This document shows positions 5,732 to 30,338 of a DNA stretch of 32,000 bases, piece after piece. The translations under genes were made by a program, and so were the position numbers. The notes below the pieces were generated by a model. It was not told the origin of the DNA. It was given only the letters and a program-made list of their open reading frames with translations, and ran no database searches. Source of the DNA: an uncultured Lentisphaeria bacterium (GTDB taxonomy: Bacteria > Verrucomicrobiota > Lentisphaeria > JABSQK01 > JAJFLO01); contig OX638337.1 in the NCBI GenBank assembly GCA_951812855.1, positions 1,290,001-1,322,000 on the forward strand, written 5' to 3'. Every line of letters starts with the position of its first letter. The stretch's first letter is position 1.

Positions 5732-5797
5732 AAACTCTAAATCCATCGAAAATATTAATAATAAACCAAACACCTGTTCAGTTAATTACGATATAAA

Positions 5798-12553: not shown

Positions 12554-12609
12554 GTTCCAAACTCCATTTTGAATTTGGAAAGAGCACTGTCATTAACAAC
12601 ACCATCCCC

Positions 12610-13067
12610 TTAATCTGAACCATAGGTGATGTTAAAACAAGTTGCGGTATTGCAGTAAAATGCCTTATAATCATCCCGTCTGTAATTGGGATATGTCCAG
12701 AACTGAGCCTGCCAGGTTTTACGAGTATAAGTTAAAGTAATCTCACCAAATATTCCGTCGTCGCTTTTCGTTATACCTGTCTGTATCAGCTAATTTCTGT
12801 TCCAGATTCTTCGTTTGATTTTGATACCCGGAAGGTATGTTGGTAAAATTCTGTCAATAAATGCCGCCAGGGCAATATACAGGACAGGTCTTCACCCATA
12901 GATGGTTCATAATAATTTGTTTCTTCAAAAGAAAAGAGTTCACTCTTTGTTAACAATGGACCCCATTTACTAATACTTTGATCAAGCCCCCATTCTATTG
13001 CGTCCGGATAACGACTGATAAATCCGGTAATCAATATCACAGGTTTATGATTTGAAATTGTCCCCAT
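12610..13067 (-). pseudogene. Decayed DUF4416-family gene (frameshifts plus an apparent internal deletion)
   Basis: ORF 12786..13067 matches the N-terminal half of DUF4416 as I remember it (KPVILITGFIS...FSFEETNYYEPSMGEDL) and then loses similarity. Other minus-strand frames downstream read GIKIK.., ..TKNLEQKLAD.. and ...DDGIFGEITLTYTRKTWQAQFWTYPNYRRDDYKAFY...*, which is the family's C-terminal WTYPDY region. The central NLDPGY segment is missing. Confidence 0.55.
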
Positions 13068-13072
13068 ACCGA

Positions 13073-14177
13073 TTAATTCATCCTCGGTTTTAACGATGTT
13101 ATTGAATATTTCAATTTCCCCAACGTTATCAATTCATATATAATTTCAGCCGTCACAAATCCAGGGGCCGGGCTTACTTTATAATGTCCTCCAGTCATAA
13201 CCAGCCCGGAAATTTCCGGAATCGGTTCAATATACGGTTTCGATCTGTACTTACCGGACGAAGCCCCGCCCATTGATTGATCACCTTGCTATTCGCAGAC
13301 ACCGGAAGAATTTCTGCAATGTTATTTAACAAATGAACTCTCACTTTATCCGTTAATGATAAGTCAACCGATCTTTTGAGTTCTGTTGTTGAGCCTATTG
13401 CAAGCTGATTATTATTCAAAGGCCGGACAAAGATACGTTTCCAGCGGATAACCCGATCAATACGCTTTTTCTGCATTCGAAGAATAATTGCCTGCCCTTT
13501 AACAGGATTTACCCGGGTATACTTTTGTAAAGCGGAAGCTTGAATAACCCGAAGCCACAACAACACCTTCAGATAAAAGTTCTCCGTTTTTCGTCTTCAC
13601 ACCGATTGCCTCATCATTATCGATTAACAGATCAGTTATCCGGCAGTTTTCTAAAATGCCAACACTGAGCTTTCTGCAGGCGGCATTTAATGCGTTCAGC
13701 AGTAAATGAACATCAATTTGAGCATAAAATGAAGAACTGATCGCACACAAATCCTGTCCCTGAAATTTCAGGGACTATAAAGTTCAATTCTTTATCACTG
13801 ATTACTGAAAGTGTAATTTGTTAATTGCTTAACTCTGATTTCTGGAAGAACGCAGCCTCCTTCTTTGTTATCTCCGGCTGTGTGTGATGATCTGGATAGT
13901 ACTTTAATCCCGCCACATCGCCAGAACCCAACGCCAATTCCCGAAAAAGATTCCAGTTCCTGTATGTAGTTACTGAAACACAGTAATCCTGTATTATGAA
14001 TAAAATTAAATTCAGCGGAGATGGCGGTCACAGCACTCCCAGTGCTGAACCCGTGGCACCGGGCCCACAGAATTTATTTTCCGGAAGTGTAACCGAAATG
14101 TTGTTTTTCGCCAACTGGAAAGCGGTGCAGAGTCCTTTAATTCCATCTCCAGCGACGCTAAAACGCGGATTATTGGT
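13073..14177 (-). pseudogene. Decayed FAD-dependent oxidoreductase (DAO family, glycine oxidase ThiO-like), split over at least five frames
   Basis: Consecutive minus-strand fragments are collinear with DAO/ThiO proteins. (1) ..NPRFSVAGDGIKGLCTAFQLAKNNISVTLPE..GATGSALGVL*, a degenerate GxGxxG FAD fold. (2) ORF 13795..14031, YIQELESFSGIGVGFWRCGGIKVL. (3) ORF 13499..13750, QIDVHLLLNALNAACRKLSVGILENCRITDL...IGVKTKNGELLSEGVVVASGYSS. (4) ORF 13195..13566, NPVKGQAIIL...AIGSTTE...WAGLRPVSTD. (5) ORF 13073..13273, LVMTGGHYKVSPAPGFVTAEIIYELI. No single frame is open. Confidence 0.75.
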
Positions 14178-14180
14178 TTT

Positions 14181-15170
14181 TCAATTTTCAGGAACATCAT
14201 GGAGTAATTTATCAATCATATTTTCAGTCGTAATACCTTCAGCATCTGCGTGAAAATTCGTGATGATTCTATGACGTAATACGGGTTTGGCCAGGGCCCT
14301 GATATCTTCACATGCAACATTGTAGCGCCCATACAGAAGTGCTCGTGCTTTTCCAGCTAAAACCAATGCCTGTGACGCCCGACTTCCGGCTCCCCATTTA
14401 ATCATCTCTTTGACATATTTTAGAGAACTCCCGGTATTCCGTGTCGCTGACACAAGACGGACTGCATAAGAAACAACGTTTGATGAAACAGGCACTTCTC
14501 TTACCAGTTCCTGAATTTCAGTAAGTTCTTCACCCGTGAAAACTTTTTCAAGAGTCGGGTTATCAGGATTTGTCGTTCTCTGAACCATTTCTTTTTCCTG
14601 TTCTGCTGATAAATAATCCATTACAACGTTAAAAATAAAACGGTCAAGTTGTGCTTCAGGCAAGGGATAGGTCCCTTCAAGTTCGATTGGATTTTGTGTT
14701 GCCAAAACAAAAAAAGGCTTCTCAAGGGTATAGGTTTTTCCCCCTGCAGTAACCTGCCTTTCTCCCATTGCTTCAAGCAGTGCGGCTTGAGTTTTTGGTG
14801 GTGTACGATTAATTTCATCTGCCAGAATGATGTTTGCGAAAATTGGACCCTTGTTAAATGTAAATATTCGTTTTCCTGTTGCAGAATCCTCTTCAAGGAG
14901 TTCAGTTCCGCAAATATCTGCCGGCATTAAATCCGGTGTAAACTGAATTCGTTTACAGGTCAGCGAAAATATTTCAGCAATACTTTTTACAAGCAACGTT
15001 TTGCCCAGCCCCGGTACGCCTGTCATCAGACAGTGCCCCTGTGTTAATAGAGCGATAATCATCTCTTCAATAATCGTTTCCTGACCAATAATGACCTTTT
15101 GCAGCTCATTGGCAATTTTGTCCCTGGTTTTAGAAACTTTCGATATAATTTCTGAACTGTCCTGTTCCAT
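14181..15170 (-). CDS. MoxR-family AAA+ ATPase
   Basis: VIIGQETIIEEMIIALLTQGHCLMTGVPGLGKT (Walker A), FTPDLMPADICGTE, ILADEINRTPPKTQAALLEAM (Walker B/sensor) and FFVLATQNPIELEGTYPLPEAQLDRF. 329 aa, typical of the MoxR AAA_3 family. Confidence 0.9.
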   Translation of the reverse strand: MEQDSSEIISKVSKTRDKIANELQKVIIGQETIIEEMIIALLTQGHCLMTGVPGLGKTLLVKSIAEIFSLTCKRIQFTPDLMPADICGTELLEEDSATGKRIFTFNKGPIFANIILADEINRTPPKTQAALLEAMGERQVTAGGKTYTLEKPFFVLATQNPIELEGTYPLPEAQLDRFIFNVVMDYLSAEQEKEMVQRTTNPDNPTLEKVFTGEELTEIQELVREVPVSSNVVSYAVRLVSATRNTGSSLKYVKEMIKWGAGSRASQALVLAGKARALLYGRYNVACEDIRALAKPVLRHRIITNFHADAEGITTENMIDKLLHDVPEN

Positions 15171-15188
15171 GTTATTGAATACTTTCTG

Positions 15189-16322
15189 TTAATGAGTTAA
15201 TGCATACATAAATATATTTGTCCCTAACCGGGTGTAGAACACATGAGCAAAATCACTGATTTCCCTGCTTTGATAATAACGAAATACACGCCACCGATTA
15301 TGCGGTTCGTTAACCCATGCAGGCAACGCATCGTTTTGACAATAAATTACATCCCTGCCTCCATCCTCACGGGTAGACTCATATCGGTCCCCTGAGTAAG
15401 CTGCTGTTCCAAGATAATCTGATAATCCTGTCGTGCTTTCTCGAATTCTAAATCGAATGGTGGTTGACCAGTTTCCCAGATGATTCTTACCCCAGCCCAT
15501 TGAAATAATTGGTGTTGCAAGAACAGCAATACGACCTTTCACGGACATCGCCACCGCAGAATAAGTTCCCTGAGGCCACTTTTCTTCAATTACAAAATCT
15601 CGGACTGAATCGGGAAGATTACCGGGATCGGGTAATCCGCTGTAAAATGATTTAAACAAGGCGTGCGTGCGTTTTAACGGAAGGAACTTTTTTCCCGGAA
15701 AAACCTGCTTAAATGCGTCTTTAATTACCGGCGATGCCTCCCAGTCCGCAAAACTATGATGTTGTCCATGACTTCTGTTCTTGCGAAGAAATTCCGCATT
15801 AATTCCGGCATCAATATAGATAAACCCTCCCCGTTCCAAATATTTCCTTAAATTTCGTTTTTCCATCTCTGAAAGAGTCCAATCTTTTCGATCTCCAAAA
15901 TTGACAAAAATAAACGGGTGCTGAAAAATTATCGGATCTTCAAACGATGAAATGATCACCGGGTCCTTATTTATTTTTACTGTGGTTCTGTCATTGATCG
16001 CAGATAATAATGTCGGCAATGCATTCGGATAGTTCCGATGAATACTCTTCCCCTGTATCAGTTGAACGATTGATACATTCGGGAGACCTGATTTTTTAAT
16101 TGACAACTGACGTTGAGCATCGTGTGAATTGACCGGGTTTATCGCAAGGCAATCTGATTGCACTGTTATCGATGCAATAAAGATGATCAATAAAAATGAT
16201 TTTTTAAGATAAAATGAAAAATCTCGACTTCCGTTAAGCTCAAGACGGGTTATGTCATGTACAACTGAATTATTATCAGGATTACCGTCAGCTTTATTTA
16301 ATTTCACCGATAGCGTTGTCAA
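15189..16322 (-). CDS. DUF4159 domain-containing membrane-anchored protein
   Basis: Single hydrophobic segment (SFLLIIFIASITVQS) after a roughly 40-aa N-terminal tail. The core ALPTLLSAINDRTTV...IFQHPFIFVNFG...LSEMEKRNLRKYLERGGFIYIDAG...FKQVFPGKKFLPL...HALFKSFY matches the DUF4159 pattern I recall. That family commonly neighbours MoxR/Bat-type genes. Lies 18 nt upstream of moxR. Confidence 0.65.
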   Translation of the reverse strand: MTTLSVKLNKADGNPDNNSVVHDITRLELNGSRDFSFYLKKSFLLIIFIASITVQSDCLAINPVNSHDAQRQLSIKKSGLPNVSIVQLIQGKSIHRNYPNALPTLLSAINDRTTVKINKDPVIISSFEDPIIFQHPFIFVNFGDRKDWTLSEMEKRNLRKYLERGGFIYIDAGINAEFLRKNRSHGQHHSFADWEASPVIKDAFKQVFPGKKFLPLKRTHALFKSFYSGLPDPGNLPDSVRDFVIEEKWPQGTYSAVAMSVKGRIAVLATPIISMGWGKNHLGNWSTTIRFRIRESTTGLSDYLGTAAYSGDRYESTREDGGRDVIYCQNDALPAWVNEPHNRWRVFRYYQSREISDFAHVFYTRLGTNIFMYALTH

Positions 16323-16497
16323 TTTTACTCTGTTTATTATTTAATTTTAATCCGTAACCAGGGAATACTTAAAAACGTTCCGGATATAATCTGCTGTAAA
16401 CCAAAGAAATAATGTAGGGATATCTGAATTTATTCCAGTCTATGTCACAACTTAACTGTGCTGCGAAGCGGTGTCAGGTCTATTTTCCAGTTTACTT

Positions 16498-18048
16498 CTA
16501 CCTGCGATGTATCACTGCCGGGTGTTGAAATCTATTATGGTGGTTTAGAATGTCCAATAATTTCTTATTCTCAGATATTTCCAATATTCCTCTGACAAAT
16601 GCAATCGTCTCCTTATTATTTGAAACCCGGATCATTCGAACCATTTCTCCACCAATTTCATCTTCATCATCCATTAAGGTTTGTGCTAAAAGTTCCTGCC
16701 AGTTATCAAGTCTTCTATTAATAATTTCCATAAGTGCTTTAATACGAATGCTATTGTCATCATCAATGATCAAGTCGATTAATAAACGCATTGCTCCTAC
16801 ATTATCCAATCTCTTACTGTATGTAATGACGAACTCACGTATATCACTGTAGTGACTCATTGACAATCGCTGAAGATCCCTCATATCCAGTTTGCCATTG
16901 CGTAACAAAACATAGGTAACTCGACTTCTGATTTGCTGAAGTGGATCGTCGAGCAAATCAATAAGCAAATTAAGATTTGCAGTCTTCCAAAAATAATCTC
17001 CATAAGTCTGTAGTGCCAATTCACGAAAACCAATGTTTTTATGAGAGAAAAGTGCGATCAATTCCGCTTCACCGCCGTCCTTCATAAAACCGAGTTTTCG
17101 GATAATTTTAGTTCCGGAAATTTGGCTTATCCGATGATTACTCAGTCGCTTTTTTAATTCCGGATAATATGAAAAATTATTATTCTCAAACAAAATTATA
17201 AGTGCTTCAGTAGATATTTCAAAATCGTCATCGTCGGTCATTGATTTCAAAATGTTTATTGTTAATGTTATATTTAACCGGGCAAGGATCTTTACGTAGT
17301 GAAGTCGCAATGTTTTATCCGAGTCATTTTCAAGAAATTTAGTTTGGTTGACAAACTCCGCATGATTCAGTGAACTGCTAATCGCATTTAATGCCAATAT
17401 TCTAACATCCCTGTCCGAATCATGTAACAAGCCCAATATCGTGGAATTGTCAATAATTCCCTTGAAATGCTGATAGCCTGTAATCATATTCTTCCTCACA
17501 ATACTGTCATTGTCTGTAAATGCCTTTTTTATTATTAACTGCAAGTCCGGTGGAAATTGATGGGTACGAATCTGCCCGCGAATTCTTATAAATGTTCGAC
17601 CAAATCCCATTATATCCGGTATATAAGAGGACGCAATCCGTCTAATATGAACGTCTTCATCCCCAATCATAGTCAGAACTTCGTTACGAGAATTCTCTGG
17701 AAAAGGCCTGGTTTCGGTCATGGACACCAACGCAGACCGCCGTATACTTGCATCATCATCTCGCAGAGATCTTATGATCGCACTTTTCGCTGCAGAATGT
17801 GAATATTTTCCCAATATCAATACTGCACGTTTACGAATATCCACCGATGAGGATGTTAGATCTTCCAGACATTTTGTTATTGTCTGAATTTCTGATTCGT
17901 ATTTGTCATTCCCGCTTACCGACTGTATCACAATTGGAGACATTAGAAAAAACACCATTAGACAGGCTGAAAGGGCAGTAAAGTTGTTTGATTGAGTCAT
18001 GATGTATTGAGCTGTGTGACAAAAACAGAGGATTGTCTGGCAAGACAT
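16498..18048 (-). CDS. HEAT-repeat protein with N-terminal signal peptide or membrane anchor
   Basis: Repeated HEAT/PBS-lyase-like units (DIRKRAVLILGKY, DASIRRSALVSM, DVHIRRIASSYI, DSIVRKNMITGY, DRDVRILALNAI, QQIRSRVTYVL, NSIRIKALMEI). The N-terminus has a hydrophobic stretch, FTALSACLMVFFLMSPIVIQSVSG. The more likely start is the second Met (about 18000, MTQSNNF...). Confidence 0.7.
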   Translation of the reverse strand: MSCQTILCFCHTAQYIMTQSNNFTALSACLMVFFLMSPIVIQSVSGNDKYESEIQTITKCLEDLTSSSVDIRKRAVLILGKYSHSAAKSAIIRSLRDDDASIRRSALVSMTETRPFPENSRNEVLTMIGDEDVHIRRIASSYIPDIMGFGRTFIRIRGQIRTHQFPPDLQLIIKKAFTDNDSIVRKNMITGYQHFKGIIDNSTILGLLHDSDRDVRILALNAISSSLNHAEFVNQTKFLENDSDKTLRLHYVKILARLNITLTINILKSMTDDDDFEISTEALIILFENNNFSYYPELKKRLSNHRISQISGTKIIRKLGFMKDGGEAELIALFSHKNIGFRELALQTYGDYFWKTANLNLLIDLLDDPLQQIRSRVTYVLLRNGKLDMRDLQRLSMSHYSDIREFVITYSKRLDNVGAMRLLIDLIIDDDNSIRIKALMEIINRRLDNWQELLAQTLMDDEDEIGGEMVRMIRVSNNKETIAFVRGILEISENKKLLDILNHHNRFQHPAVIHRR

Positions 18049-18120
18049 TATTTAACTGATTCAACGGAAAAAAGTCAATATTATGACGTGATATATCAAA
18101 TCCTGAAAACGGACTGTTAT

Positions 18121-19221
18121 CTATAGCTTCCCAATCCGTTTTAGTACGTTGAGAACCTCATCTCCTTCAGTATGCGATTCCCTCCAAACCTTTTCAGCCT
18201 CATTGGTAAGATCAACTTCCAGCCTGGAGAGCGTAACATATTGATCCAGTGATTTTTCAACCCGATTTCGTTTATGTCTGCCTGAAATCGCATTAAAATC
18301 ATCGACTAATTCTAAAGGCTTTCGAGAATAAAGTAAAGACACGGTAATCAGCGGTTTTTTCAGTTCGGGATTGTGCAGTACCGAATACATTGGAGAAACA
18401 TCGTCTTCAGCAAAATAGTCAAGTATACTGTAAAAACTGTTTGTTAAATCCGGATTAGGGAGTTCAAGGAGAAAAAGAGATTCAATCGTCCCTTCTGGAT
18501 CAAGAAGTAATTCATTGTAATTTGCCTTTAACTGTTTACCAAACGGTACGTCCTGATCATACTCAAATTGGCAAAAATGATTGAAATATGGTTTCGTTTT
18601 ATAAAGACAAAAATCTTCATAATCGATATTTCCATCAAGCTGTTTTAACTCTTCGCCTTTAATTGGAATATGCAGGAAATGATTTAACGACTCAATAATC
18701 ATTTTATTAAATGTTTTTTCAGGGATGCGTTGTTCAAATTTCACCTTATTCGAGAATACAATTAAATTACCTGTGTTACCCGCATCAATCGCCTTCGAAA
18801 CAGGTCCTTCCAGAAAACTAATGGTATTATCAACAAAATCAGATGATTCCCGCTGTGCATAAGGAACAACAAACACAAATACGGTTTTATTTGTTATGGA
18901 TATCGAATCTAATGCGGACAGATGTTCTAACATTACCGAACAAAGTCCGTTTCCAGTTCCCCCTCCGGTTGAACAGAATACGGTCTGTCCCTTAATGAGG
19001 TCAAGTGCCTTGTTTTTTACAGACTGGAATGCCTGTCTTCCAATTTCCGGATCCTTTCGTGAACCTTTAAGCTGTGCTTTACTTGAATGTGCAACCGCAC
19101 GAATTTTAGAACATGCTTCAACCTTATCAAGCTCCACTCCGGAAACATCAAATATTGTTGCACTCCCTTCGTCTAATAAACTGGCCAGTTTGCTTCCGGC
19201 CCCGCCAACTCCAACACTCAT
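18121..19221 (-). CDS. Divergent FtsZ/tubulin-superfamily GTPase (TubZ-like or FtsZ-like, 366 aa)
   Basis: GVGGAGSK at aa 4-11 (T1/G-box; FtsZ has GVGGGGxN). KGSRKDPEIGRQAF at aa 52-65 (compare the FtsZ GAGxNPxxGxxAA region). STGGGTGNG at aa 84-92 (tubulin/FtsZ signature GGGTG[ST]G, about 18946..18966). VFVVPYAQRE and LIVFSNK strands sit in FtsZ-like order. NIDYED at aa 198-203 (T7 NxDxxD, about 18613..18630). I cannot assign the C-terminal 160 aa or so. The GGAGGG Shine-Dalgarno lies inside the last codons of the upstream ORF. Confidence 0.75.
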   Translation of the reverse strand: MSVGVGGAGSKLASLLDEGSATIFDVSGVELDKVEACSKIRAVAHSSKAQLKGSRKDPEIGRQAFQSVKNKALDLIKGQTVFCSTGGGTGNGLCSVMLEHLSALDSISITNKTVFVFVVPYAQRESSDFVDNTISFLEGPVSKAIDAGNTGNLIVFSNKVKFEQRIPEKTFNKMIIESLNHFLHIPIKGEELKQLDGNIDYEDFCLYKTKPYFNHFCQFEYDQDVPFGKQLKANYNELLLDPEGTIESLFLLELPNPDLTNSFYSILDYFAEDDVSPMYSVLHNPELKKPLITVSLLYSRKPLELVDDFNAISGRHKRNRVEKSLDQYVTLSRLEVDLTNEAEKVWRESHTEGDEVLNVLKRIGKL

Positions 19222-19222
19222 A

Positions 19223-19546
19223 TTAACCCTCCAGGAAATTAGATGGTTTTATTGAATATATATTCTGACTGTAAAGCAGTTCTAACACCTTTGCCCCGTA
19301 ATTGGTAATGTAGAGATTTTTTCGATTATGTTCCTCAACCATACTGAGAAAACACAGCGTGGTTAACGACTCTATATAGGCAACAGCACTCTGCTTGGTC
19401 CGCGTAATTCTATGGTATTTTAAGTCATCATATGCGTTCGTTATATTATACTTAATATGCTGGCTTTCAGCTTTGGCTGCCCAATATAATATAAGGAAAT
19501 GATAATCCCTTAATGACGCGACCTGTTTATCAAATAGATCTTTCAC
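19223..19546 (-). CDS. Small winged-helix-like putative DNA-binding protein (TubR-like in size and position)
   Basis: 107 aa with a GTG start; aggaag lies 12 nt upstream. The segment ITRTKQSAVAYIESLTTLCFLSMVEEHNRKNLYITNYGAKVLELL has the helix-turn-helix plus beta-wing pattern of MarR/PadR/TubR-type wHTH proteins. The stop codon is 1 nt before the ATG of the FtsZ/tubulin-like gene. Assignment rests on pattern, not strong identity. Confidence 0.5.
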   Translation of the reverse strand: MKDLFDKQVASLRDYHFLILYWAAKAESQHIKYNITNAYDDLKYHRITRTKQSAVAYIESLTTLCFLSMVEEHNRKNLYITNYGAKVLELLYSQNIYSIKPSNFLEG

Positions 19547-19649
19547 ACTCGGTAATGATACTTCCTGTTTATTAAGAATATAAGTTAAAAATCAAATAAA
19601 AGCACAAAAAACCCCTCTAAAACCCGTTTCTACAGACGGATTCCCGGCA

Positions 19650-19682
19650 CTTAAAGCATAGTATACTATACTATGCTTTAAG
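19650..19682. promoter_or_regulatory. Perfect 16-bp-arm inverted repeat with 1-nt spacer (cttaaagcatagtata c tatactatgctttaag); candidate operator or centromere-like site
   Basis: Read directly. Located about 105 bp upstream of the wHTH gene start in the divergent intergenic region. The core contains TAGTATA half-sites. Confidence 0.55.
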
Positions 19683-19811
19683 ACAAGCAGTTTTTTAGGT
19701 TTTAGACAAATTTTTTACTGATAATATTCGAAAAATTACACAACCACCGAAACAGAATATACATAATACGCCTTGAACAAGCTTGTTGCGAGCTGCACGC
19801 ATATCTGTATT

Positions 19812-19833
19812 CTACTATAGTGTAGTATGGTAG
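19812..19833. promoter_or_regulatory. Imperfect inverted repeat (ctactatag tg tagtatggtag) sharing ACTATA/TAGTAT half-sites with the 19650 palindrome
   Basis: Read directly. ctac...gtag termini with internal actatag/tagtatg. The motif is related to the half-site of the 33-bp palindrome about 150 bp away. Confidence 0.35.
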
Positions 19834-20055
19834 AATGCTGGCTGTAAATTTGCGTGTTTCCTATCATAAAACATTTTATAGCAGCAGTATTTTTACAAAA
19901 TTTGTTATACATTGGATAAATCAAAACAAAATTTGTATGAATTTTATGTATCATTTTTATATTACGCTGGTTATAAAATATTTATTCTTAGAAAAATTGA
20001 TGGAAACAAAAAAGAAGGCAATCTGAATGCCGGATGTATAAAATACTCTATCTTC

Positions 20056-20078
20056 TTATATAACAGCATGTTATATAA
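20056..20078. promoter_or_regulatory. Perfect 10-bp-arm inverted repeat with 3-nt spacer (ttatataaca gca tgttatataa)
   Basis: Read directly. Lies about 165 bp upstream of the MazG-like gene start. The AT-rich stem has no adjacent T-tract, so an operator-type site is more likely than a terminator. Confidence 0.35.
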
Positions 20079-20240
20079 TTAAATTTGAGAGTAAAAATTC
20101 TTCAATGTAAATTTTGATAAAACTTTTTCTTAAATTTTAGGTGAAAATGGGTACTCTTCGGTAATAACATTCTATATGTATTATTAAATCTATAACATTG
20201 AAATTTGTGCATCCGTTCTAAAAAATAATCGGAGTAAATA

Positions 20241-20657
20241 ATGAGTTATACAAAAAAAGTTCGTGAGTTTTCACAAGTATGTAATGGTTCTTTAACATCT
20301 AAACCGATATTAATTTCTAAGGGGGCTGTTGAATTCATTCGCAAAATGGTCAATGATGAACTTGATGAATTGGAAGAATCCGAATCCATTGTGGAACAGG
20401 CTGATGCATTGGTTGATGCAATATATTATATTTGCGACTGTGCAGTAAAACATGGTATGAATCTTGATCCATTATTTGACATAGTCCATGAAGCAAATAT
20501 GGGAAAAGTAGTTGATGGAAAGGTAATTCGTCGGGATGATGGAAAAATCCTGAAGCCTGAAGGGTGGACAGATCCACATCCTTTGTTAGAAGCAGAGGTA
20601 CAGAAACAGCTTAGTGAAGGTTCATTTAGTGAAATTCCCAGTGATATTTCCTGGTAA
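20241..20657 (+). CDS. MazG-like all-alpha nucleoside triphosphate pyrophosphohydrolase family protein
   Basis: Pattern DELDELEES....EQADALVDAIYYICDCAVKHGMNLDPLFDIVHEANMGKVVDGKVIRRDDGKILKPEGW matches the small MazG/HisE-like NTP-PPase family common in bacteria and phages (E-x-x-E/D metal ligands, VH.sNMsK...DGKi.Kp). ggag lies 9 nt upstream of the ATG. Confidence 0.65.
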   Translation: MSYTKKVREFSQVCNGSLTSKPILISKGAVEFIRKMVNDELDELEESESIVEQADALVDAIYYICDCAVKHGMNLDPLFDIVHEANMGKVVDGKVIRRDDGKILKPEGWTDPHPLLEAEVQKQLSEGSFSEIPSDISW

Positions 20658-20677
20658 ACAGGTTTAAGACGTCATTG

Positions 20678-21667
20678 TCACCAAATATTTATCAATTTTA
20701 CCTCTGGAAAATATTTTTTAATGGTATTGCTGTCTTTTTTATCAAAAATCAATTTAATATTGGGTCCTGCATCTATCGTAAAATAAACTGAAATTCCATT
20801 TTCACGTAAATTCCAGATTTCCCTCATATACTGTACAGTTTCCGGCAGCCAATATAATATTGGCGGCTTTGTATCTAACATCGTTGCATGCATACTCAAC
20901 GCATTTGATTCGGTAATTTCACCAAAACGTTTCATATCTTTTTCTTTTAGCGAACCGAGTAGACTTTTTAAATCGTGACTAATCCGTTCTGACCAATTTT
21001 TATAGAGTAATGATGTTTTAGAGGTAAGGGACATTGCTTTTCGTGATGAAATTACTTTTGGCTTATCAGATACTGTAAGAATTCCGATCGTAAGTTCAGA
21101 CCACTTATACGATAATGTTTCACCATAAGAGTCCATACCGTCTTGCTGTTTACCCGCATGCCAATATACAAATCCATTTTCGATTGATCGACATGCACTT
21201 CCGCTCCCCAGGCGTGCAATTATTGACATGTGTTGATGATCTAAATTCCATGAAAAGAGTTTATTCAAAGCATTTGTTAATGCACAAAATCCTGATGCGG
21301 ACGATGCAAGACCGGCGTTAGTCGGTATATCGTTTTTTGTTTTAACGGTAAAATAAAATTCCGGATCGGGTCTGAATAAATCAACGAAATTCACGATCCG
21401 GTTAAAAAAGTCCGAGTGTTCATCTATTTTTTTGTCGTTTAGAAACACTGTGTCTTTATTATTATTAACTGATAATTCAGTTGTCGTACCCAGATTTGTT
21501 AATGAGATTGACAGACTGTCGGTAACGGGTAGATTGAGGATCTCATTCCGTTTTCCCCAATATTTAATTAATGCGATATTAACCGGTGCAAATGCCGTTA
21601 CGGTACCATAATAATCGCTGCTCTTATTTTTACCCAAAATCTGATTAATTACATCCTGCTTAGTCAA
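20678..21667 (-). CDS. mvaD: Diphosphomevalonate decarboxylase
   Basis: APVNIALIKYWGKRNEILNLPVTDSLSISL, TNAGLASSASGFCAL and ARLGSGSACRS are hallmark MVD motifs. 329 aa. Confidence 0.9.
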   Translation of the reverse strand: MTKQDVINQILGKNKSSDYYGTVTAFAPVNIALIKYWGKRNEILNLPVTDSLSISLTNLGTTTELSVNNNKDTVFLNDKKIDEHSDFFNRIVNFVDLFRPDPEFYFTVKTKNDIPTNAGLASSASGFCALTNALNKLFSWNLDHQHMSIIARLGSGSACRSIENGFVYWHAGKQQDGMDSYGETLSYKWSELTIGILTVSDKPKVISSRKAMSLTSKTSLLYKNWSERISHDLKSLLGSLKEKDMKRFGEITESNALSMHATMLDTKPPILYWLPETVQYMREIWNLRENGISVYFTIDAGPNIKLIFDKKDSNTIKKYFPEVKLINIW

Positions 21668-22586
21668 TCGTGAACCCCTTATTCGTTATATCGACTGAAA
21701 TAATTTCAAAAGGAAATGAGTTATCATTAACAGCTCCAATACCGATCACGCAATCGCCTAATCCAGAGCCCGAGATTTTTGCCCCGGAAATGGTCGGCAT
21801 TTGTCTCAAAGCATAAATGATTTCATTCAATTTCAAATTACTGAGTTCCATTGCTTCCATGAGTCCATGGTTCAGCGTTAATATTTTACCAAATGTGTCC
21901 CATTGTTTATTTTCTAAAGCATTCAATGCTTCGCAACAACTCCTGTCCATTAAATCAAAGATAGAATTATATAATTCAGTAAATTTACTATACGATTTAT
22001 TTACCCGGTCTATAACCTGTGTTGTTGGTATTTTGTTCCCGGAATTTATCACGGTAATGGGCATGTCACATTCAACTTTTTTAACACTAAACGGTTCAGC
22101 TCTGTAATATAATAAACCACCATACACACTTGCGGCAACATCCGCACCGGATCCCTTTCCCTGAACCGCTTTTACTGCTGATAAACTACTCTTGAAAATG
22201 GCGTTTAAATCAACCGTTTCATTGAGTAAATAGTGAATCGCTCCGACCAGGGCTGCGGTGACAGCAGCTGATGATCCGAAACCAAGACTGTCTGAAAATT
22301 CAGATTCGATTCTTATATCCATTCCTTTTCCCCGGATTTCATTAAACCGGGTAATGGCTGAATATACAAATCGAAAGATTCTATTGTCATTCAAATCAGT
22401 AATTGATCCATTGTAGTGACCCAATTCTGACCGTATTGAAATCGTTTTATTCGAACTAAAATTGACAGACACTGTTATTCTTCTGTTGATCGCACATACC
22501 AAAGCGTGTTTGCCATGCAATACTGCATGTTCTCCGAGGATCATTAATTTCCCGGGTGCTGAAACCTTAACAGCATCGTAAACCAT
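21660..22586 (-). CDS. GHMP kinase, probable phosphomevalonate kinase
   Basis: APGKLMILGEHAVL N-terminus, GFGSSAAVTAALVGA ATP-binding motif and QGKGSGADVAASVYGG, which resembles the bacterial ERG8-type PMK pattern I recall. SGSGLGDC is near the C-terminus. Overlaps mvk by 20 nt and mvd by 8 nt. PMK versus a second MK is not certain. Confidence 0.6.
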   Translation of the reverse strand: MVYDAVKVSAPGKLMILGEHAVLHGKHALVCAINRRITVSVNFSSNKTISIRSELGHYNGSITDLNDNRIFRFVYSAITRFNEIRGKGMDIRIESEFSDSLGFGSSAAVTAALVGAIHYLLNETVDLNAIFKSSLSAVKAVQGKGSGADVAASVYGGLLYYRAEPFSVKKVECDMPITVINSGNKIPTTQVIDRVNKSYSKFTELYNSIFDLMDRSCCEALNALENKQWDTFGKILTLNHGLMEAMELSNLKLNEIIYALRQMPTISGAKISGSGLGDCVIGIGAVNDNSFPFEIISVDITNKGFTID

Positions 22587-23583
22587 CGTTATCTCCTTTT
22601 ATTGGCAATAGTGCATAATTATATTTTTTACATAGTCTTTTTAGGTCTTTTTTACCAACGACCATAACAATTCCGGCACTATCACCTGAAACCGAACCCG
22701 CACCAGAAATTTTTGCAGCTCCCCCAATATGTTCAATCTCTCTGATAAATGACTGAACCCGATCCGGCACAACACCTATATCACATAATAATCTATGATT
22801 TTCACGGATAGTACTTGCGAATCCGGATACGTCATTTTCAGTCATCACTGTCATCATCGTTTCAGTGATATTTTCAATCTGGTCCCAAACTAACTGATTT
22901 TTTACTTTCTCCCGAACACTCATCACGCATTGACCTGTTGACGATTGGGGTTTTCCGGTAAATACCAGGAAAAATTCCATATTCGGCATCGCTAACTTTT
23001 TCTGATCATTCTTCGTATATTTTACCAGACCGCCGTGTAAACATACAAATGGATCCAGGCCGCTCGACTGACCATGTTTTAAATGTTCACATTGAAGTGC
23101 AAGTTGAAACAGTTCCGAATGATCAGGAGTTACATTTAGCTGAACTGAAAATGCCTGAAGAACACCCAGGGAAACCGATGCAGATGACCCCATTCCACAA
23201 CCAATAGGTATTGTTGTTTCAATTTTAATAGATACACCATGTTTCATTGTCATACCGTATTTTTTCAATAACAATCCACAGGCATATGGGAAAAGTTGAA
23301 GTGTCTCGGGTAAAACAGATGAGACTGCTATCTTTTTATCGATAAATTCTTGATAACGGTTATTTGTGCAATCAATAATTTGGTGAATTTCATCGATGTC
23401 ATAACTCAGGCTGGAGCCTGTAACTAAATCTGAAAATTCAAATTCGATTCGTTTTGATATAATTGATTTTGATTCAGCAACAGTATACCGATTGACCGCC
23501 ATAGCCAATGCCGGCTTATTATAAACCACACTGTGTTCACCACTTACTATAATTTTTCCTGGAACTTTGACCGAATATATCAT
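22567..23583 (-). CDS. mvk: Mevalonate kinase
   Basis: VPGKIIVSGEHSVVYNKPALAMAV, PIGCGMGSSASVSLG, EHLKHGQSSGLDP (MK-type HG.pSG.D) and KISGAGSVSGDS motifs. First gene of the mvk-pmk-mvd operon. Confidence 0.75.
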   Translation of the reverse strand: MIYSVKVPGKIIVSGEHSVVYNKPALAMAVNRYTVAESKSIISKRIEFEFSDLVTGSSLSYDIDEIHQIIDCTNNRYQEFIDKKIAVSSVLPETLQLFPYACGLLLKKYGMTMKHGVSIKIETTIPIGCGMGSSASVSLGVLQAFSVQLNVTPDHSELFQLALQCEHLKHGQSSGLDPFVCLHGGLVKYTKNDQKKLAMPNMEFFLVFTGKPQSSTGQCVMSVREKVKNQLVWDQIENITETMMTVMTENDVSGFASTIRENHRLLCDIGVVPDRVQSFIREIEHIGGAAKISGAGSVSGDSAGIVMVVGKKDLKRLCKKYNYALLPIKGDNDGLRCC

Positions 23584-23727
23584 ATTAAATCAGCCCTGTA
23601 CACAACGATATTTCCCTTCAATCAAATCAATATTTTATCTCGATATTGACATAAAGGTAAAGTATTCTTATAACCTTGATAATTACAACGAATCAGGTCG
23701 CTTAAAAATTGAGAAAGGATAGAAATC

Positions 23728-24155
23728 ATGATTCCCGAACAGTGAATTGAATAAAACAATCATACAGCAACGTTCGTGGGAGAGTTTTTCAAAGCAGGTA
23801 AAGAAGCGATGAAACAAAAGAATTACGATCGTGCTGAACAAAAATTCAATGCACCATTAGAGGCTGCCAACAAGTTGGGTAAGGATGACCCACGGCTTGG
23901 AAATATTCATAGTGCCATTACTGAAATTTATTTTTAAAAGGCAATTTAGAAGCATCTGCTGACAGCTGCCAGAAAACCGTTGAGATCCGGGAGAACACGT
24001 TAGGCGAAAACTATTCCGGGCTGATCGCCATCCTTACAAGCTGCGCACAAGTCCCTGGTAAAATGAAGAAAAAAGATGAAGCGGATAAGATTATTAAACG
24101 CCTGAGGATATCAAGAAAAACAATGAAGCATCCCATCAGTAATCTTTTAACATAA
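23728..24155 (+). pseudogene. Decayed small TPR-like protein gene (two in-frame stops near the 5' end plus one frameshift)
   Basis: aaagga lies upstream, then ATG at 23728: MIPEQ*IE*NNHTATFVGEFFKAGKEAMKQKNYDRAEQKFNAPLEAANKLGKDDPRLGNIHSAITEIYF*. After a frame change it reads KGNLEASADSCQKTVEIRENTLGENYSGLIAILTSCAQV...*. The TPR-type pattern (A/G/Y positions, LG..HP-like turns) is continuous only across the breaks. No ORF of 60 aa or more remains. Confidence 0.55.
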
Positions 24156-24165
24156 TGAATTCTTT

Positions 24166-26868
24166 TTACTTACTGTCTGCAATTCCTTGCTGAGCAGCAG
24201 CGAGTCGTGCAATAGGCACCCTGTACGGTGAACAACTCACATAATTCATTCCGATTCTGACACAAAATTTTACACTTTCCAATTCACCGCCATGTTCTCC
24301 ACAAATCCCAATTTTCAGATTCTTCTTCGTTGAACGACCTTTTTTAATTCCAAGTTTTACGAGTTGTCCGACTCCTTCTTGATCCAGGACTTGAAATGGA
24401 TCATTCTTAAAAATACCCGCTTTTTTCTCATCGACATAATCAGGAAGGAATCGGCCTGAATCATCGCGTGACAATCCCATTGTTGTCTGGGTTAGATCAT
24501 TCGTCCCAAATGAGAAAAATTCAGCTGTTTCAGCGATTTTATCAGCCGTTAATGCTGCCCGCGGTATCTCGATCATTGTCCCAATTAAGTACGGAATTTT
24601 AGATTTTGACAATTTATTTTCTTTTAAAACTGAATTTGCGACTTTCCGAACGCGTTCGGAAAGTATTTCCAACTCCCTGCCTGCCATGGTAAGCGGAATC
24701 ATGATCTCAGGTTTTACTTTAATGTTTTTCTTCGTCACAATACAGGCAGCTTCCAAAATTGCTCGAACCTGCATATCCAGTATCTCGGGATAAGTAATTG
24801 CTAAGCGGCAACCTCTATGACCCAGCATCGGATTGAATTCGTGTAACAATTCAACACGCTGCTTTACTTTCGTATATGGCACTCCAATCTTTTTCGCCAA
24901 ATCACGTTGCCCCTTGTCATCATGAGGAACGAACTCATGCAACGGCGGATCAATCAGTCGAATTGTTACCGGGTATCCTTTCATTGCCTTAAATATACCG
25001 GCAAAATCATCCCGTTGAAACGGTCTTAATTTTTCAAGTGCCTTTATCCGGGCTTCGATTGTTTCTGCCACAATCATTTCGCGGATTGCATCAATGCGTT
25101 CCTGAGTATCGAAAAACATATGTTCAGTTCGACAAAGCCCAATGCCTTCTGCTCCCATTTCAATCGCTTTACCGGCATCTTCCGGAGTATCCGCATTTGT
25201 TCGGACACTAACAGTTCTAAACTTATCCGCCCACTTCATTATCTGTGTATATTCTTTTGGTAATCGAGGATCAATAAGTGGAAACTCACCCTTATAAACA
25301 TCGCCGCTGGATCCGTTTAAGGTGAGAAAATCACCTTCTTGCAAGACCGTCCCCTTTACTGACATTTTTTTATTTTTATAATCAATTTCCAAATGTTCGC
25401 ATCCGACAATGCAGCATTTTCCCCAACCTCGGGCAACAACAGCTGCGTGACTTGTTTTCCCGCCTGTTTGGGTAAGAATACCCCTGGCCGCATGCATTCC
25501 ACCAACATCTTCCGGACTGGTTTCCTTACGGACCAAAATAACCCGTTCTCCATTGTTTGCTGCCGTTTCAGCAACAGTAGCGGAAAAATAAATTTTCCCC
25601 GCAGCCGCCCCCGGTACAGCATTGACACCAACAGTCAACAACGCATCAGATAGATCTTGCCTGGATATTGATGTATCAATTTCAGGATAAAACAGTCGTT
25701 CAATATCATCCGGAGTAATTCGTGAGACAGCTTCCTGTTCAGTAATCAGACCTTCTCTGACCATATCATATGCAATTTTGAATGTTGCTGCAGGTGTTCG
25801 TTTTCCGCGTCGGGTCTGGAGCATATACAACGTGCCTTCGTCAACCGTAAATTCGAGATCCTGCATATCTTTATTGTGTTTCTCAAGTTTACTGCGAACC
25901 TTCAAAAGCTGGTTATAAACCTTTTTATTCTTTTTTTGCAATTCGGCAAGTTTCACTGGAGTACGTATTCCCGCAACCACGTCTTCGCCTTGTGCATTAA
26001 ATAGATAATCGCCATAAAATTCGTTCTTTCCGGAATTCGGATCACGTGTAAACGCGACACCGGTTCCGGATGTTTCACCTTTATTCCCAAATACCATCGT
26101 ACAGATATTTACAGCTGTCCCGCAGACTTCGTTTTCACTGATTTTTTCGACACGCCGATAGGTTACCGCCTTATCCGCCATCCAGCTGTTGAATACAGCA
26201 TTGATTGATCCCTCCAATTGAGCCCATGGATTTTGGGGGAATGGTTTTCCAACCATCTTTTTATATTTTGCTTTCAACTCCTCACAAAGCTGTTTTAATT
26301 CATCACCTGTGACTTCAGTGTCGAGAACAGATTCCCCTTTTTTCCGTTTAAGACGCTTTGCGACCACAGTTTCTTTAAACTGATCAAATGCACTTTCGAA
26401 TTCTTCCTTACTCAATCCCATTGCTGTTGATGCATACATCATAATGAACCGACGATACCCATCGTATGCAAAACGTCGGTTATTCGTCTTTTCTGCCTGT
26501 CCTTCAACAGACTTGTCATTTAATCCGAGATTTAGAATCGTTTCCATCATTCCCGGCATTGACAATGCTGCACCTGAGCGTACTGAAACCAGTAAAGGGT
26601 CGTTTGGATCTCCTAACTTTTTTCCGGTTAATTTTTCCAGTTTAGCGAGTTGAGCCTGGACTTGTTTTTTTAATCCTGACGGCCATTTTCTGCCGTTTTC
26701 ATAGTACTCACCACATGCAGTTGTTGAAACAGTGAATCCCGGGGGAACAGGCAAGCCAATATTCGTCATTTCTGCCAGACCAACGCCTTTACCGCCGAGC
26801 ACCATTTTTTGACTTGGTTTTCCCTCTGCTTTTCTTCCTCCAAAAAAATAAACATATTTCTTAGCCAT
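24166..26868 (-). CDS. ppdK: Pyruvate, phosphate dikinase
   Basis: 900 aa, collinear with PPDK. It has LGGKGVGLAEM, the phospho-histidine region GGKTSHAAVVARGWGK, and PEP/pyruvate-domain motifs GLCRTEHMF, FFSFGTNDLTQ and ICGEHGG. A strong GAGGAG RBS lies upstream. Confidence 0.95.
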   Translation of the reverse strand: MAKKYVYFFGGRKAEGKPSQKMVLGGKGVGLAEMTNIGLPVPPGFTVSTTACGEYYENGRKWPSGLKKQVQAQLAKLEKLTGKKLGDPNDPLLVSVRSGAALSMPGMMETILNLGLNDKSVEGQAEKTNNRRFAYDGYRRFIMMYASTAMGLSKEEFESAFDQFKETVVAKRLKRKKGESVLDTEVTGDELKQLCEELKAKYKKMVGKPFPQNPWAQLEGSINAVFNSWMADKAVTYRRVEKISENEVCGTAVNICTMVFGNKGETSGTGVAFTRDPNSGKNEFYGDYLFNAQGEDVVAGIRTPVKLAELQKKNKKVYNQLLKVRSKLEKHNKDMQDLEFTVDEGTLYMLQTRRGKRTPAATFKIAYDMVREGLITEQEAVSRITPDDIERLFYPEIDTSISRQDLSDALLTVGVNAVPGAAAGKIYFSATVAETAANNGERVILVRKETSPEDVGGMHAARGILTQTGGKTSHAAVVARGWGKCCIVGCEHLEIDYKNKKMSVKGTVLQEGDFLTLNGSSGDVYKGEFPLIDPRLPKEYTQIMKWADKFRTVSVRTNADTPEDAGKAIEMGAEGIGLCRTEHMFFDTQERIDAIREMIVAETIEARIKALEKLRPFQRDDFAGIFKAMKGYPVTIRLIDPPLHEFVPHDDKGQRDLAKKIGVPYTKVKQRVELLHEFNPMLGHRGCRLAITYPEILDMQVRAILEAACIVTKKNIKVKPEIMIPLTMAGRELEILSERVRKVANSVLKENKLSKSKIPYLIGTMIEIPRAALTADKIAETAEFFSFGTNDLTQTTMGLSRDDSGRFLPDYVDEKKAGIFKNDPFQVLDQEGVGQLVKLGIKKGRSTKKNLKIGICGEHGGELESVKFCVRIGMNYVSCSPYRVPIARLAAAQQGIADSK

Positions 26869-26996
26869 TTACTTATTCTCCTCAGATATTTTGCACTATA
26901 GCAGTCAGTCGTTAACCTGATCGATTCAGGCCTCAGTGTAAATGAAATAAATTTTGCGTAACGCGAAGCGCTGAAACTAATTAAGAAAAATGAACG

Positions 26997-27441
26997 TTGC
27001 AAGTAGTTTTACCAAAAAACTGTGATTTACAGAAACAAAATCTTGCCGGACGTCGTATTCTTGTTGTTGACGATCTTCCCATCAATATCGAGGTCTTGGC
27101 AGAAACTCTCCAGTCAGAGCGTTTTAATGTGTTTAAGGCATCGAATGGCAAGGTTGCCCTCGAAATTGCTGCAATACAACCCTGACCTAATATTATTAGA
27201 TATCATGATGCCCGGGGAAAATGACTTTGAAACTTGCCAGACCTTAAAATAAATGGAGGATATTAAGTTAATTCCAGTAATTTTTATCAGTGCTGAATTC
27301 GATGGTGAAGAAATTGGAAAAGTGTTTTTCGCAGGAGGCGTGGATTATATTAACAAACCGTTTTGACAAATAGAGATACTTTCCAGAGTAAGAACACATC
27401 TTTTACTGCAAAAATTCTTGAATGATAAACCAATTTCGTAA
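26997..27441 (+). pseudogene. Decayed CheY-like response-regulator receiver domain (one frameshift, in-frame TAA and TGA)
   Basis: Frame 1 reads GRRILVVDDLPINIEVLAETLQSERFNVFKASNGKVALEIAA..*. The shifted frame reads ..NPDLILLDIMMPGENDFETCQTLK*(TAA, 27250)MEDIKLIPVIFISAEFDGEEIGKVFFAGGVDYINKPF*(TGA, 27364)QIEILSRVRTHLLLQKF. The canonical DD...D...T/S...K receiver motifs are present but interrupted. Confidence 0.75.
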
Positions 27442-27610
27442 AATGGAAAACCAGCCGGTGAACCTGGACTTGCTAACCAGGCACGGAAATTTCAAAGCAA
27501 GTTGAAAACTGTAATTCATTGACAATTAAATCGTATTATTTTTAATAATCGGCCATCAATATCAGAATTTACTGGATTGTCGAAAATAAAATACTCGGTA
27601 TGACCCTAAA

Positions 27611-28720: not shown

Positions 28721-28915
28721 TATTAAAATCTCGGTGTTTCTTATTTACCATACTAAATTGTAGAAATTAGAAATTCAGAAAAACACACACTGTTAACTAA
28801 AAATTCCGGAACAACAAAAACCGCCACAATAACTAAATTTTTTAACGTCGAATGAATTTACAGGTTATAAGGCTTGTTCTTAATCCTTTAGAATTAAATA
28901 ATACTGATAATGGAA

Positions 28916-30124: not shown

Positions 30125-30338
30125 AATTTCGATTGGGACTACTTTTTAAAATATCATATAAATTTTGGTTCAAAATAACAACTAAAACTGAGTTTTAGCC
30201 GAGTTGTACTCAATCGTGATGAGGCGGCTTTAAGTTAAAGAAGATGTAAACAATCAGTTTAAATAAAATATTCTCAAAGGGATTATACTGAGTTGATCTG
30301 TGTATTTATTATTTCAAATAACTGATAAATTAACTTTT

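Follow-up and report, generated by a model that had tools for sequence, protein, structure and literature searches.

A TubZ-like GTPase, a TubR-like partner and upstream pentamer repeats in Lentisphaeria: a candidate chromosomal type III partition module

What is the role of a divergent FtsZ/tubulin-superfamily GTPase that is encoded among housekeeping genes on a bacterial chromosome? The question is raised by a 32,000-nucleotide stretch of DNA from an uncultured Lentisphaeria bacterium (contig OX638337.1, positions 1,290,001 to 1,322,000; the whole stretch is referred to here as the window), in which a preliminary description made from the sequence alone had singled out an open reading frame (ORF) for a 366-amino-acid protein of this kind. 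Bacterial chromosomes are thought to depend on ParABS, SMC and entropy for their segregation, and tubulin-based prokaryotic DNA segregation is, to our knowledge, known only from plasmids and phages. The 366-amino-acid protein is described here as TubZ-like; it is encoded together with a TubR-like protein and downstream of repeat DNA that resembles a tubC centromere. On balance, these three parts probably make up a type III (TubZRC-like) module for DNA partition that is chromosomal, is inherited vertically and acts on the locus where it resides. Most of the interest lies in the repeat DNA and the phylum-wide conservation, neither of which the preliminary description had seen.

The ORF for the TubZ-like protein occupies exactly positions 18121-19221 of the window, stop codon included, and is encoded on the minus strand; the coordinates and the length had been given correctly and the strand left unmentioned, and the plus-strand translation of the same interval is riddled with stops. 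The four superfamily motifs that had been named stand at the residues given for them, namely the T1 loop or G-box 1, GVGGAGSK (residues 4-11, window 19189-19212, minus strand), the T3 segment KGSRKDPEIGRQA (residues 52-64), the T4 tubulin signature STGGGTGNG (residues 84-92, window 18946-18972, minus strand) and NIDYED of T7 (residues 198-203). The last of these lies within GNIDYEDF (residues 197-204, window 18610-18633, minus strand), which spans the T7 loop and the start of helix H8 and is the predicted catalytic loop for the next subunit. The Pfam Tubulin/FtsZ GTPase model (PF00091) matches residues 23-121 significantly (E=3.9e-7) at 31 bits, below the 33-bit gathering score, and is present on most homologues in precomputed annotation. 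FtsZ chains in the PDB are matched by phmmer at E~2e-4, with T1, T3 and T4 aligning residue for residue (T1 to GVGGGG and T4 to GGGTGTG of FtsZ), and the family profile matches FtsZ in the PDB at E 7e-7. Because of these Pfam and phmmer matches, and of a score of 14.1 bits against a cutoff of 295.2 bits for the NCBIfam ftsZ equivalog model (TIGR00065), the motifs are considered real and the protein is not regarded as a canonical FtsZ.

Conservation within the family follows the nucleotide-binding and catalytic elements closely. In an alignment of 43 family sequences with a mean column identity of 63%, the invariant residues include G4, G6, G7, G9 and K11 of T1, G53 of T3, G86, G87, G88, G90 and G92 of T4, P120 and E125 of the T5 region, S157 and N158 of T6, and G197, D200, D203 and F204 of T7; K56, P58 and G61 of T3 and T89 and N91 of T4 are at least 90% conserved. 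Position 198 of T7 is mostly histidine in the family and asparagine in the window protein, and the GGGTGNG of the TubZ-like GTPase places asparagine at the [ST] position of the superfamily signature GGGTG[ST]G. The Pfam match, the invariant motif residues and the modelled fold described below together bear out the earlier assignment to a divergent FtsZ/tubulin-superfamily GTPase. Between H5 and S6 there is also a family-specific invariant loop, IDxGNTGN (residues 145-152, window 18766-18789), which has no counterpart in FtsZ or in TubZ-type relatives and may be a filament-interface or regulatory loop.

The family is both compact and isolated. Relatives of the TubZ-like protein number 297 among 90%-identity clusters, and the best 120 of these are nearly all full length (364-401 amino acids, 93-100% query cover) and, bar one identical entry, 50-87% identical to it. 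The source databases always name the relatives 'hypothetical protein', and the organisms are metagenome-assembled genomes (MAGs) labelled Lentisphaeria, Victivallales, Kiritimatiellales, Pontiella or 'Verrucomicrobiota'. An exhaustive hidden Markov model search covered 1.84 billion 50%-identity representatives; three full-length clusters and some fragments were all that beat 1e-10, and beyond the family the matches drop to E~1e-7 or weaker, to proteins of 340-413 amino acids.

An AlphaFold2 model built on the 43-sequence alignment (pLDDT 86.5, pTM 0.80) has its elements in the canonical order S1-H1 through S6-H6, H7 (residues 168-191), T7, H8, S7, H9, S8, H10, S9 and S10. In the model T7 links H7 to H8, the place that it has in FtsZ and tubulin, and the elements from S7 to S10 make up the canonical C-terminal activation domain. 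This domain is followed by a 26-residue helix assigned by DSSP (residues 302-327, window 18241-18318, minus strand), which is H11-like as in TubZ and tubulin. The statement that the last 160 or so residues resemble nothing recognisable is therefore incorrect, since the segment after T7 models as the activation domain and the long H11-like helix. Beyond the helix there is a low-confidence stretch, including residues 328-337 without predicted secondary structure, and then two short terminal helices, with pLDDT values of 49-69 for this linker and terminal peptide segment. Across the alignment, the part C-terminal to the long helix differs in length between members, three of which (P0033, P0049 and P0120) carry Pro/Glu-rich inserts; its last residues form a conserved peptide, ...VLxVLKRLGKL, in which L360, R362 and K365 are invariant. 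The protein had been said to lack a C-terminal linker or peptide; it has both, a variable linker (about residues 328-353) and a conserved peptide (about residues 354-366, here EVLNVLKRIGKL), which together form a predicted docking tail (window 18124-18240, minus strand).

A Foldseek comparison of the model with the PDB returned 606 matches at E of at most 0.001, of which FtsZ structures have the best E-values (Staphylococcus aureus FtsZ, 3.8e-17, query-normalised TM-score, TMq, of about 0.62). The best TM-score belongs to TubZ of Bacillus cereus (4ei7_B; TMq 0.71, target-normalised TMt 0.68), which is also the longest match among the PDB matches at 381 columns including gaps, about 60 more than the FtsZ matches, and the 4ei7 match appears to reach the long C-terminal helix at 302-327. 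Alignments to FtsZ and TubZ structures cover more than 315 columns, and CetZ structures are matched as well. The model confidently predicts a complete two-domain FtsZ/tubulin fold.

Fold and motifs place the protein in the superfamily, and several comparisons point to TubZ as its nearest neighbour there. Among 20 non-family matches from the exhaustive search that were scanned for domains, 11 carry Pfam Tubulin together with TubZ_C_3 (PF22340) and four are ordinary FtsZs with FtsZ_C; the TubZ-type proteins rank above the FtsZs even though FtsZ is vastly more abundant. Profile-profile alignment of the family with 17 TubZ-type proteins (hhalign) gave a probability of 99.6% and an E-value of 1.1e-23 over 284 columns (residues 2-320), with GNIDYED aligned to GNiDxxE of the TubZ-type proteins, compared with 97.4% and 1.4e-11 for a four-sequence FtsZ profile. 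The TubZ-type set is itself about equally close to FtsZ (E 1.2e-21), and the window's family is thus best described as a long branch with TubZ as its nearest neighbour. Within the PDB, RepX/TubZ (4ei7) is matched by the family profile at E 5e-6 over residues 19-168, the longest sequence coverage. By profiles and predicted fold, then, the nearest relatives of the TubZ-like protein appear to be TubZ-type proteins. The preliminary description had held that this is not a division FtsZ, and the failure against the ftsZ model is accompanied by the absence of an FtsZ_C (PF12327) match in the 366-amino-acid protein at E of 1 or below and of dcw genes in the window; none recur among the neighbours of 79 family loci. 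Of the family assignments it had offered, a TubZ-like protein and an undescribed clade both hold, given the nearest relatives and the tight, isolated set of 'hypothetical proteins', and FtsZ-like (FtsZl) does not, on grounds of architecture.

The DNA-binding partner noted earlier is real. It is a 107-amino-acid ORF at 19223-19546 on the minus strand, with a GTG start, whose stop codon lies one base before the ATG of the TubZ-like gene. The GGAGGG Shine-Dalgarno sequence of the TubZ-like gene sits inside the end of this ORF, an arrangement by which the two genes appear to be translationally coupled. Searches of Pfam and NCBIfam gave no match for the 107-amino-acid protein, which belongs to a conserved family of 107-109 amino acids with the invariant pattern YNIT..DDLK....TRTKQ...NRK..Y. 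The one convincing match of its family profile to a solved structure, end to end and at E=3.2e-4, is TubR of the B. megaterium plasmid pBM400 (4asn_A). The AlphaFold2 model (pLDDT 95.4) is a winged helix with winged helix-turn-helix (wHTH) topology, for which Foldseek ranks 4asn_A second, with the highest target-normalised TM-score (TMt 0.80), and also matches pBtoxis TubR (3m8e).

The pairing of the two proteins is strict. By tblastn, the TubR-like gene is directly upstream of the TubZ-like gene and on the same strand in 85 of 85 loci, and the pairwise distances of the two proteins correlate (Pearson 0.77). Two homologue contexts have nothing in common with the window except a gene for about 108 amino acids that abuts the TubZ-like gene, and clustering of 822 neighbouring ORFs from 79 loci revealed no universal neighbour besides the TubR-like gene. 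The source assembly's gene predictions (ENA ERZ18545485 contigs; L085-L087) omit the TubR-like gene, and no identical protein is present in a collection of 15 billion proteins, where the best match is 87%; small partners of this kind are probably under-annotated in many MAGs. A distant TubZ-type relative with TubZ_C_3 (P0205, locus L088:2142-3428) has an 83-amino-acid, weakly wHTH-like gene 13 nucleotides upstream, and its locus lies amid HTH and Mrr-type genes, the mobile-element context expected of classical type III systems.

The third part of the module is found in a 700-bp intergenic region upstream of the TubR-like gene, which holds two repeat blocks. The proximal block (19650-19682) is a perfect 16+16 palindrome, CTTAAAGCATAGTATA-g-TATACTATGCTTTAAG, of TAGTA/TACTA pentamers with the core TAGTA-TAGTA-TACTA; it was detected as an inverted repeat (I6), has a DNA hairpin z-score of -5.96, and its promoter-proximal end is 103 nucleotides upstream of the TubR-like start. 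Strict TAGTNTAGT sites occur only twice in the 32 kb, both times in this intergenic region. The distal block (19810-19835, TTCTACTATAGTGTAGTATGGTAGAA) consists of four in-phase pentamers, TACTA-TAGTG-TAGTA-TGGTA, with inverted arms TTCTAC/GTAGAA, and lies about 265-290 nucleotides upstream of the TubR-like start; the block analysis places the two blocks 153 nucleotides apart. In a comparison with the closest relative, L013 (90% protein identity), both blocks stand out as conserved islands, whereas the spacer between them has diverged. The last 67 or so nucleotides before the GTG (19547-19613, minus strand) are likewise far better conserved with L013 than the spacer is. This leader is tentatively assigned as the promoter region of tubR-tubZ, and a scan for promoter consensus sequences found no above-chance site in it.

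Repeats of the same kind precede the gene pair across the family. Seven-mers such as TACTATA, AGTATAG and ACTACAC occur in 48-52 of 78 unique 300-nucleotide upstream regions against about one expected (p~1e-78), with 2441 windows from the same loci as the control. The underlying arrays consist of pentamers repeating every 5 bp, as (TAGTN)n or its complement (NACTA)n and frequently in both orientations, and strict tandem pentamer pairs were found in 52 of the 78 upstream regions and in nine of the 2441 control windows. With a relaxed core and within 400 nucleotides, blocks of three or more in-phase pentamers are present in 61 of 76 loci, and two or more such blocks in 34, at a median spacing of 113 nucleotides; against a background of 0.0098 per control window this is an enrichment of about 130-fold. 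In many loci the blocks reach up to about 300-900 nucleotides upstream. A universal palindrome was rejected as the shared element, as long perfect palindromes occur in few loci and the common feature is the pentamer array. The arrays emerged from k-mer enrichment, and Tandem Repeats Finder reported merely an unrelated 13-nucleotide repeat. An RNA element was likewise rejected for the intergenic 700 bp, since the window, this region included, contains no Rfam family or tRNA match; the ORFs of 63 and 72 amino acids in the region are AT-rich and without support.

The distribution of the family points to vertical inheritance on the chromosome. When each GTDB species was represented by a single genome, 92 genomes proved to carry the family; of the 80 loci retrieved, nearly all bear the label Lentisphaerota (Lentisphaeria, Victivallales, Oligosphaerales) or Kiritimatiellota (Pontiella, Tichowtungia, Kiritimatiellales). 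Cultured carriers include Oligosphaera ethanolica DSM 24202, Lentisphaera marina IMCC 11369 and a Pontiellaceae isolate. Across these roughly 92 species the family shows 46-90% identity, and every catalytic residue is invariant. Nine of the 10 sequences labelled Kiritimatiellota group together in a neighbour-joining tree, and the TubZ-like tree follows taxonomy; together with the correlation of TubZ and TubR distances, this argues for vertical co-inheritance of the pair. The bins of three loci are labelled Bacteroidaceae (L063), Deltaproteobacteria (L065) and Anaerovoracaceae (L076), and their sequences nest inside Lentisphaeria/Victivallales clades, so these bins are probably mislabelled or contaminated rather than cases of horizontal transfer. 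No relative was found by tblastn in 72,556 plasmids (PLSDB) or 50,697 phage genomes (INPHARED), or by a scan of 2.9 million viral contigs (IMG/VR). A defence system was also considered and rejected, as neither the TubZ-like nor the TubR-like protein was matched in PADLOC. The gene content of the window agrees with the chromosomal, housekeeping setting described earlier and includes homoserine dehydrogenase, LeuA, an NAD-dependent epimerase, QPRTase, a Na/H exchanger, MMPL, MoxR, DUF4159, the lower mevalonate pathway, PPDK, TGT, NamZ, HIT and L21, with no integrase, transposase, replication or phage genes in the 32 kb.

Some neighbours recur in part of the family. A Hanks-type Ser/Thr kinase gene (Pkinase, E 2e-28) lies directly downstream on the same strand in about 30 of 79 loci, for example at L026:7190-8218 and L038:7219-8631, mainly in Oligosphaerales, Victivallales and Lentisphaeria lineages; it is not present in the window, and the kinase-bearing loci include no close relatives of the window's organism. 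Its presence in about 40% of the compared loci suggests control by phosphorylation, and the kinase may be a lineage-specific regulator of the system. In Lentisphaerae bacterium GWF2_38_69 (L001:11262-12520), ankyrin-repeat and FHA-domain proteins are encoded after the TubZ-like gene, which hints at phospho-signalling or scaffolding around the cassette; the FHA domain binds phospho-threonine. Downstream of its TubZ-like gene, the window itself encodes a HEAT-repeat protein of 516 amino acids, a DUF4159 protein and an ATPase of the MoxR (AAA_3) type (14181-18048, minus strand). The TubZ-like and HEAT-repeat genes are separated by 72 nucleotides without a predicted terminator, and co-transcription with this gene group is possible; a HEAT-repeat neighbour occurs in three loci, the window and two others, and it is therefore probably not part of the system.

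All three TubZRC parts thus appear to be present in the canonical order, and two of them are backed, by sequence and model, by homology to solved TubZ and TubR. [quoted passage not shown] By its homology to TubR and the position and conservation of the motif, the TubR-like protein would bind the split repeat blocks cooperatively as dimers, repress its own operon and build a nucleoprotein complex. The invariant motifs and the fold suggest that the TubZ-like protein would bind GTP through T1-T6 and polymerise head to tail, and that D200 and D203 of T7 would complete the active site of the neighbouring subunit, coupling hydrolysis to assembly. The C-terminal peptide on its flexible linker could, by analogy, dock the filament onto the TubR-DNA complex, and filament dynamics might then move or position the repeat-carrying chromosomal locus. 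The target of such a system would be the host chromosome (its segregation, orientation or positioning) and not a plasmid, with the downstream Ser/Thr kinase, where present, as a possible control by phosphorylation.

The known systems that the locus most resembles are those of pBtoxis (B. thuringiensis), pXO1 RepX (B. anthracis/cereus), pBM400 (B. megaterium) and the C. botulinum prophage c-st, which share with it the order of repeats, small wHTH gene and tubulin-like GTPase gene, tightly coupled. The likeness extends to the small partner, which matches TubR by profile and fold; to the TubZ-like protein, with 4ei7 as its best TM-score, TubZ_C_3 in its nearest sequence relatives, and a predicted long C-terminal helix and flexible tail; and to the repeat site, which like that of c-st lies upstream of tubR as separate blocks of very short iterons. 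Characterised TubZRC systems come from Bacillus and Clostridium plasmids and a prophage (PMC6009700), and in a survey of the FtsZ/tubulin family from 2023 TubZ is presented as a plasmidic, Firmicute protein (PMC9871819). The system in the window, in contrast, is chromosomal and without relatives in the plasmid, phage and viral collections searched, and belongs to a tight, isolated clade that is vertical across two phyla of the Planctomycetes-Verrucomicrobia-Chlamydiae (PVC) bacteria, not Firmicutes. It also differs from known TubZ in the invariant IDxGNTGN loop before S6 and in being missed by the Pfam TubZ_C models, from known tubC in iterons of 5-bp period and mixed orientation that are sometimes palindromic, and from known TubZRC in gene content, with no TubY-like gene seen and a Ser/Thr kinase following in about 30 loci. 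Phage tubulins such as PhuZ share a tubulin/FtsZ fold that is used for positioning DNA-containing structures, and they are matched weakly (PHROG PhuZ, E 1e-3; Foldseek TMq 0.53-0.70 at no more than 14% identity); the window protein is not encoded by a phage, and PhuZ lacks an adaptor system of TubR or tubC. Given the lack of plasmid or phage carriage and the miss by the TubZ_C models, the locus is described as a chromosomal variant that most likely works like TubZRC; its housekeeping context and the lack of plasmid, phage or viral matches are the reason for calling it homologous to TubZRC and not filing it as a plasmid partition system. No account of a chromosomal TubZ or of this clade was found in the full-text literature searched, which takes in few papers from subscription journals.

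Several observations weigh against a partition module. The TubR match is modest (E 3e-4), and MarR and PadR winged helices obtain similar E-values in Foldseek. Neither TubZ_C_3 nor any other Pfam TubZ_C model matches the 366-amino-acid protein at E of 1 or below, and no similarity is detectable between the 83-amino-acid partner in L088 and the TubR-like family. Under the motif definition used, 15 of 76 loci have no pentamer block, and repeats beside their own promoter are also what a plain autorepressor would be expected to have. There is no consistent link to an origin or terminus: a GC-skew flip lies within 5 kb of the cassette in just four of 37 loci, on which ground a special chromosomal position was rejected, and L012, where the cassette sits at 51% of a 3.08-Mb chromosome record, has no flip. 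We know of no precedent for a machine that pushes or pulls one chromosomal locus in the manner of a plasmid system. The main rival is a rather different account, in which the TubZ-like protein is a domesticated cytoskeletal filament that transports no DNA and serves division-plane choice, cell shape or the positioning of structures, with the TubR-like protein as a mere autorepressor on the repeats. This account is a serious possibility, though it is judged doubtful overall. A chromosomal, apparently single-copy gene in two phyla has no obvious need of plasmid-type partition, the repeats lie just upstream of the operon as an operator would, generic wHTH regulators fit the TubR-like model about as well as TubR does, and the kinase of about 30 loci, with HEAT or ankyrin and FHA proteins elsewhere, hints at regulation or scaffolding; the cultured members of the carrier groups are cocci, which bears on the same account. 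Separated multi-pentamer blocks, however, exceed what a simple operator needs and are the hallmark of a split tubC, the tail-on-linker layout of the TubZ-like protein suits adaptor docking, and strict pairing, translational coupling and co-evolution bind the GTPase to its TubR-like partner.

The remaining accounts fare worse. On another account the locus belongs to an integrated plasmid, prophage or some other mobile element, whose partition module is still active or in decay; this would fit with the location of all characterised TubZRC systems on plasmids or prophages (PMC6009700) and with the HTH and Mrr-type genes around the distant relative in L088. It is nevertheless improbable, in view of 32 kb without mobile or replication genes, the empty searches of plasmid, phage and viral collections, 46-90% identity over some 92 species with invariant catalytic residues, a tree by taxonomy, and flanks that differ between lineages without mobile hallmarks. 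PVC bacteria have an unusual division machinery, and a highly divergent division FtsZ that replaces or duplicates the canonical one in PVC lineages would account for the best Foldseek E-values (4e-17), for the N-terminal motifs, which by plain sequence align best with FtsZ, and for the FtsZ-like layout of a core, a variable linker and a short conserved terminal peptide. Both domains are shared with FtsZ and T1, T3, T4 and T7 align, but identity is only about 18-20%, the ftsZ equivalog (14 against 295 bits) and FtsZ_C models both fail, dcw neighbours are missing, and profile-profile comparison favours TubZ-type proteins by 12 orders of magnitude. The extra long C-terminal helix sets the protein apart as well, an obligatory DNA-binding adaptor with repeats is no FtsZ trait, and canonical FtsZ with dcw genes is reported in both Lentisphaerota and Kiritimatiellota (PMC12283558, PMC5148204, PMC5147048); a divergent FtsZ is thus very improbable. 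Hardly credible is membership in FtsZl1 or FtsZl2, the membrane-remodelling systems of Makarova and Koonin, which are likewise divergent, long-overlooked bacterial proteins of the FtsZ superfamily with PVC members included. The weak PF00091 match of a previously unannotated GTPase would suit them, as would the kinase that is a frequent neighbour of the window family, FtsZl1 being found in Planctomycetes and sometimes fused to protein kinases (PMC2875224). They differ in size, domain architecture, motif completeness and gene neighbourhood. FtsZl1 has about 1000 amino acids, with an FtsZ-like domain at its N terminus, a long coiled coil, an alpha-helical domain and no recognisable T6-H7-T7, and its neighbours are vWA, OmpA and GTPase genes; FtsZl2 is proteobacterial and joins an FtsZ-like domain to an alpha/beta C-terminal region of about 300 amino acids (PMC2875224). 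Set against these published descriptions, FtsZl1 was rejected for a protein of 366 amino acids with a complete T7 and activation domain, no Tubulin_2 match in a Pfam scan and none of the vWA, OmpA or GTPase neighbours, and FtsZl2 for a family confined to the PVC group and without the extra domain.

If the partition reading is correct, a conserved and vertically inherited TubZ-TubR-repeat module would mean tubulin-driven DNA movement on bacterial chromosomes; otherwise it would represent a new domesticated cytoskeletal system. A more far-reaching version of the partition reading, which we regard as speculative, is that a tubulin-family filament, working with a dedicated DNA adaptor and repeats like those of a centromere, segregates or orients the chromosome of Lentisphaerota and Kiritimatiellota themselves; the two phyla would have it from their common ancestor, and Ser/Thr kinases would control it in many lineages. 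Segregation of the carriers' own chromosome in this way would make it the first chromosomal type III (tubulin-based) segregation machine in bacteria. In either case about 300 'hypothetical proteins' and their unannotated partners gain a concrete annotation, and the system lends itself to direct test, as cultured carriers exist, both proteins are of small size and the candidate binding sites have single-base coordinates.

Other features of the window lie apart from the cassette. Plus-strand genes (647-12553) and minus-strand genes (13195-31488) converge in the region of about 9000-13200, and the GC skew turns from positive to negative at about 9-13 kb of the window, in a terminus-like manner; the change may be an effect of gene orientation. 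Small or fragmentary ORFs fill about 1.6 kb at 12554-14180, where the source assembly calls genes of 41 and 93 amino acids (the latter DUF4416). A 123-amino-acid ORF at 13195-13566 matches positions 214-322 of the 353-position DAO oxidoreductase model and is likely a gene remnant. Three consecutive GHMP-family genes at 20678-23583 (minus strand), one of them diphosphomevalonate decarboxylase-like (MVD-like_N, MDD_C), point to the lower mevalonate pathway, in which the other two would be mevalonate and phosphomevalonate kinases; this pathway is a minority isoprenoid route in bacteria.

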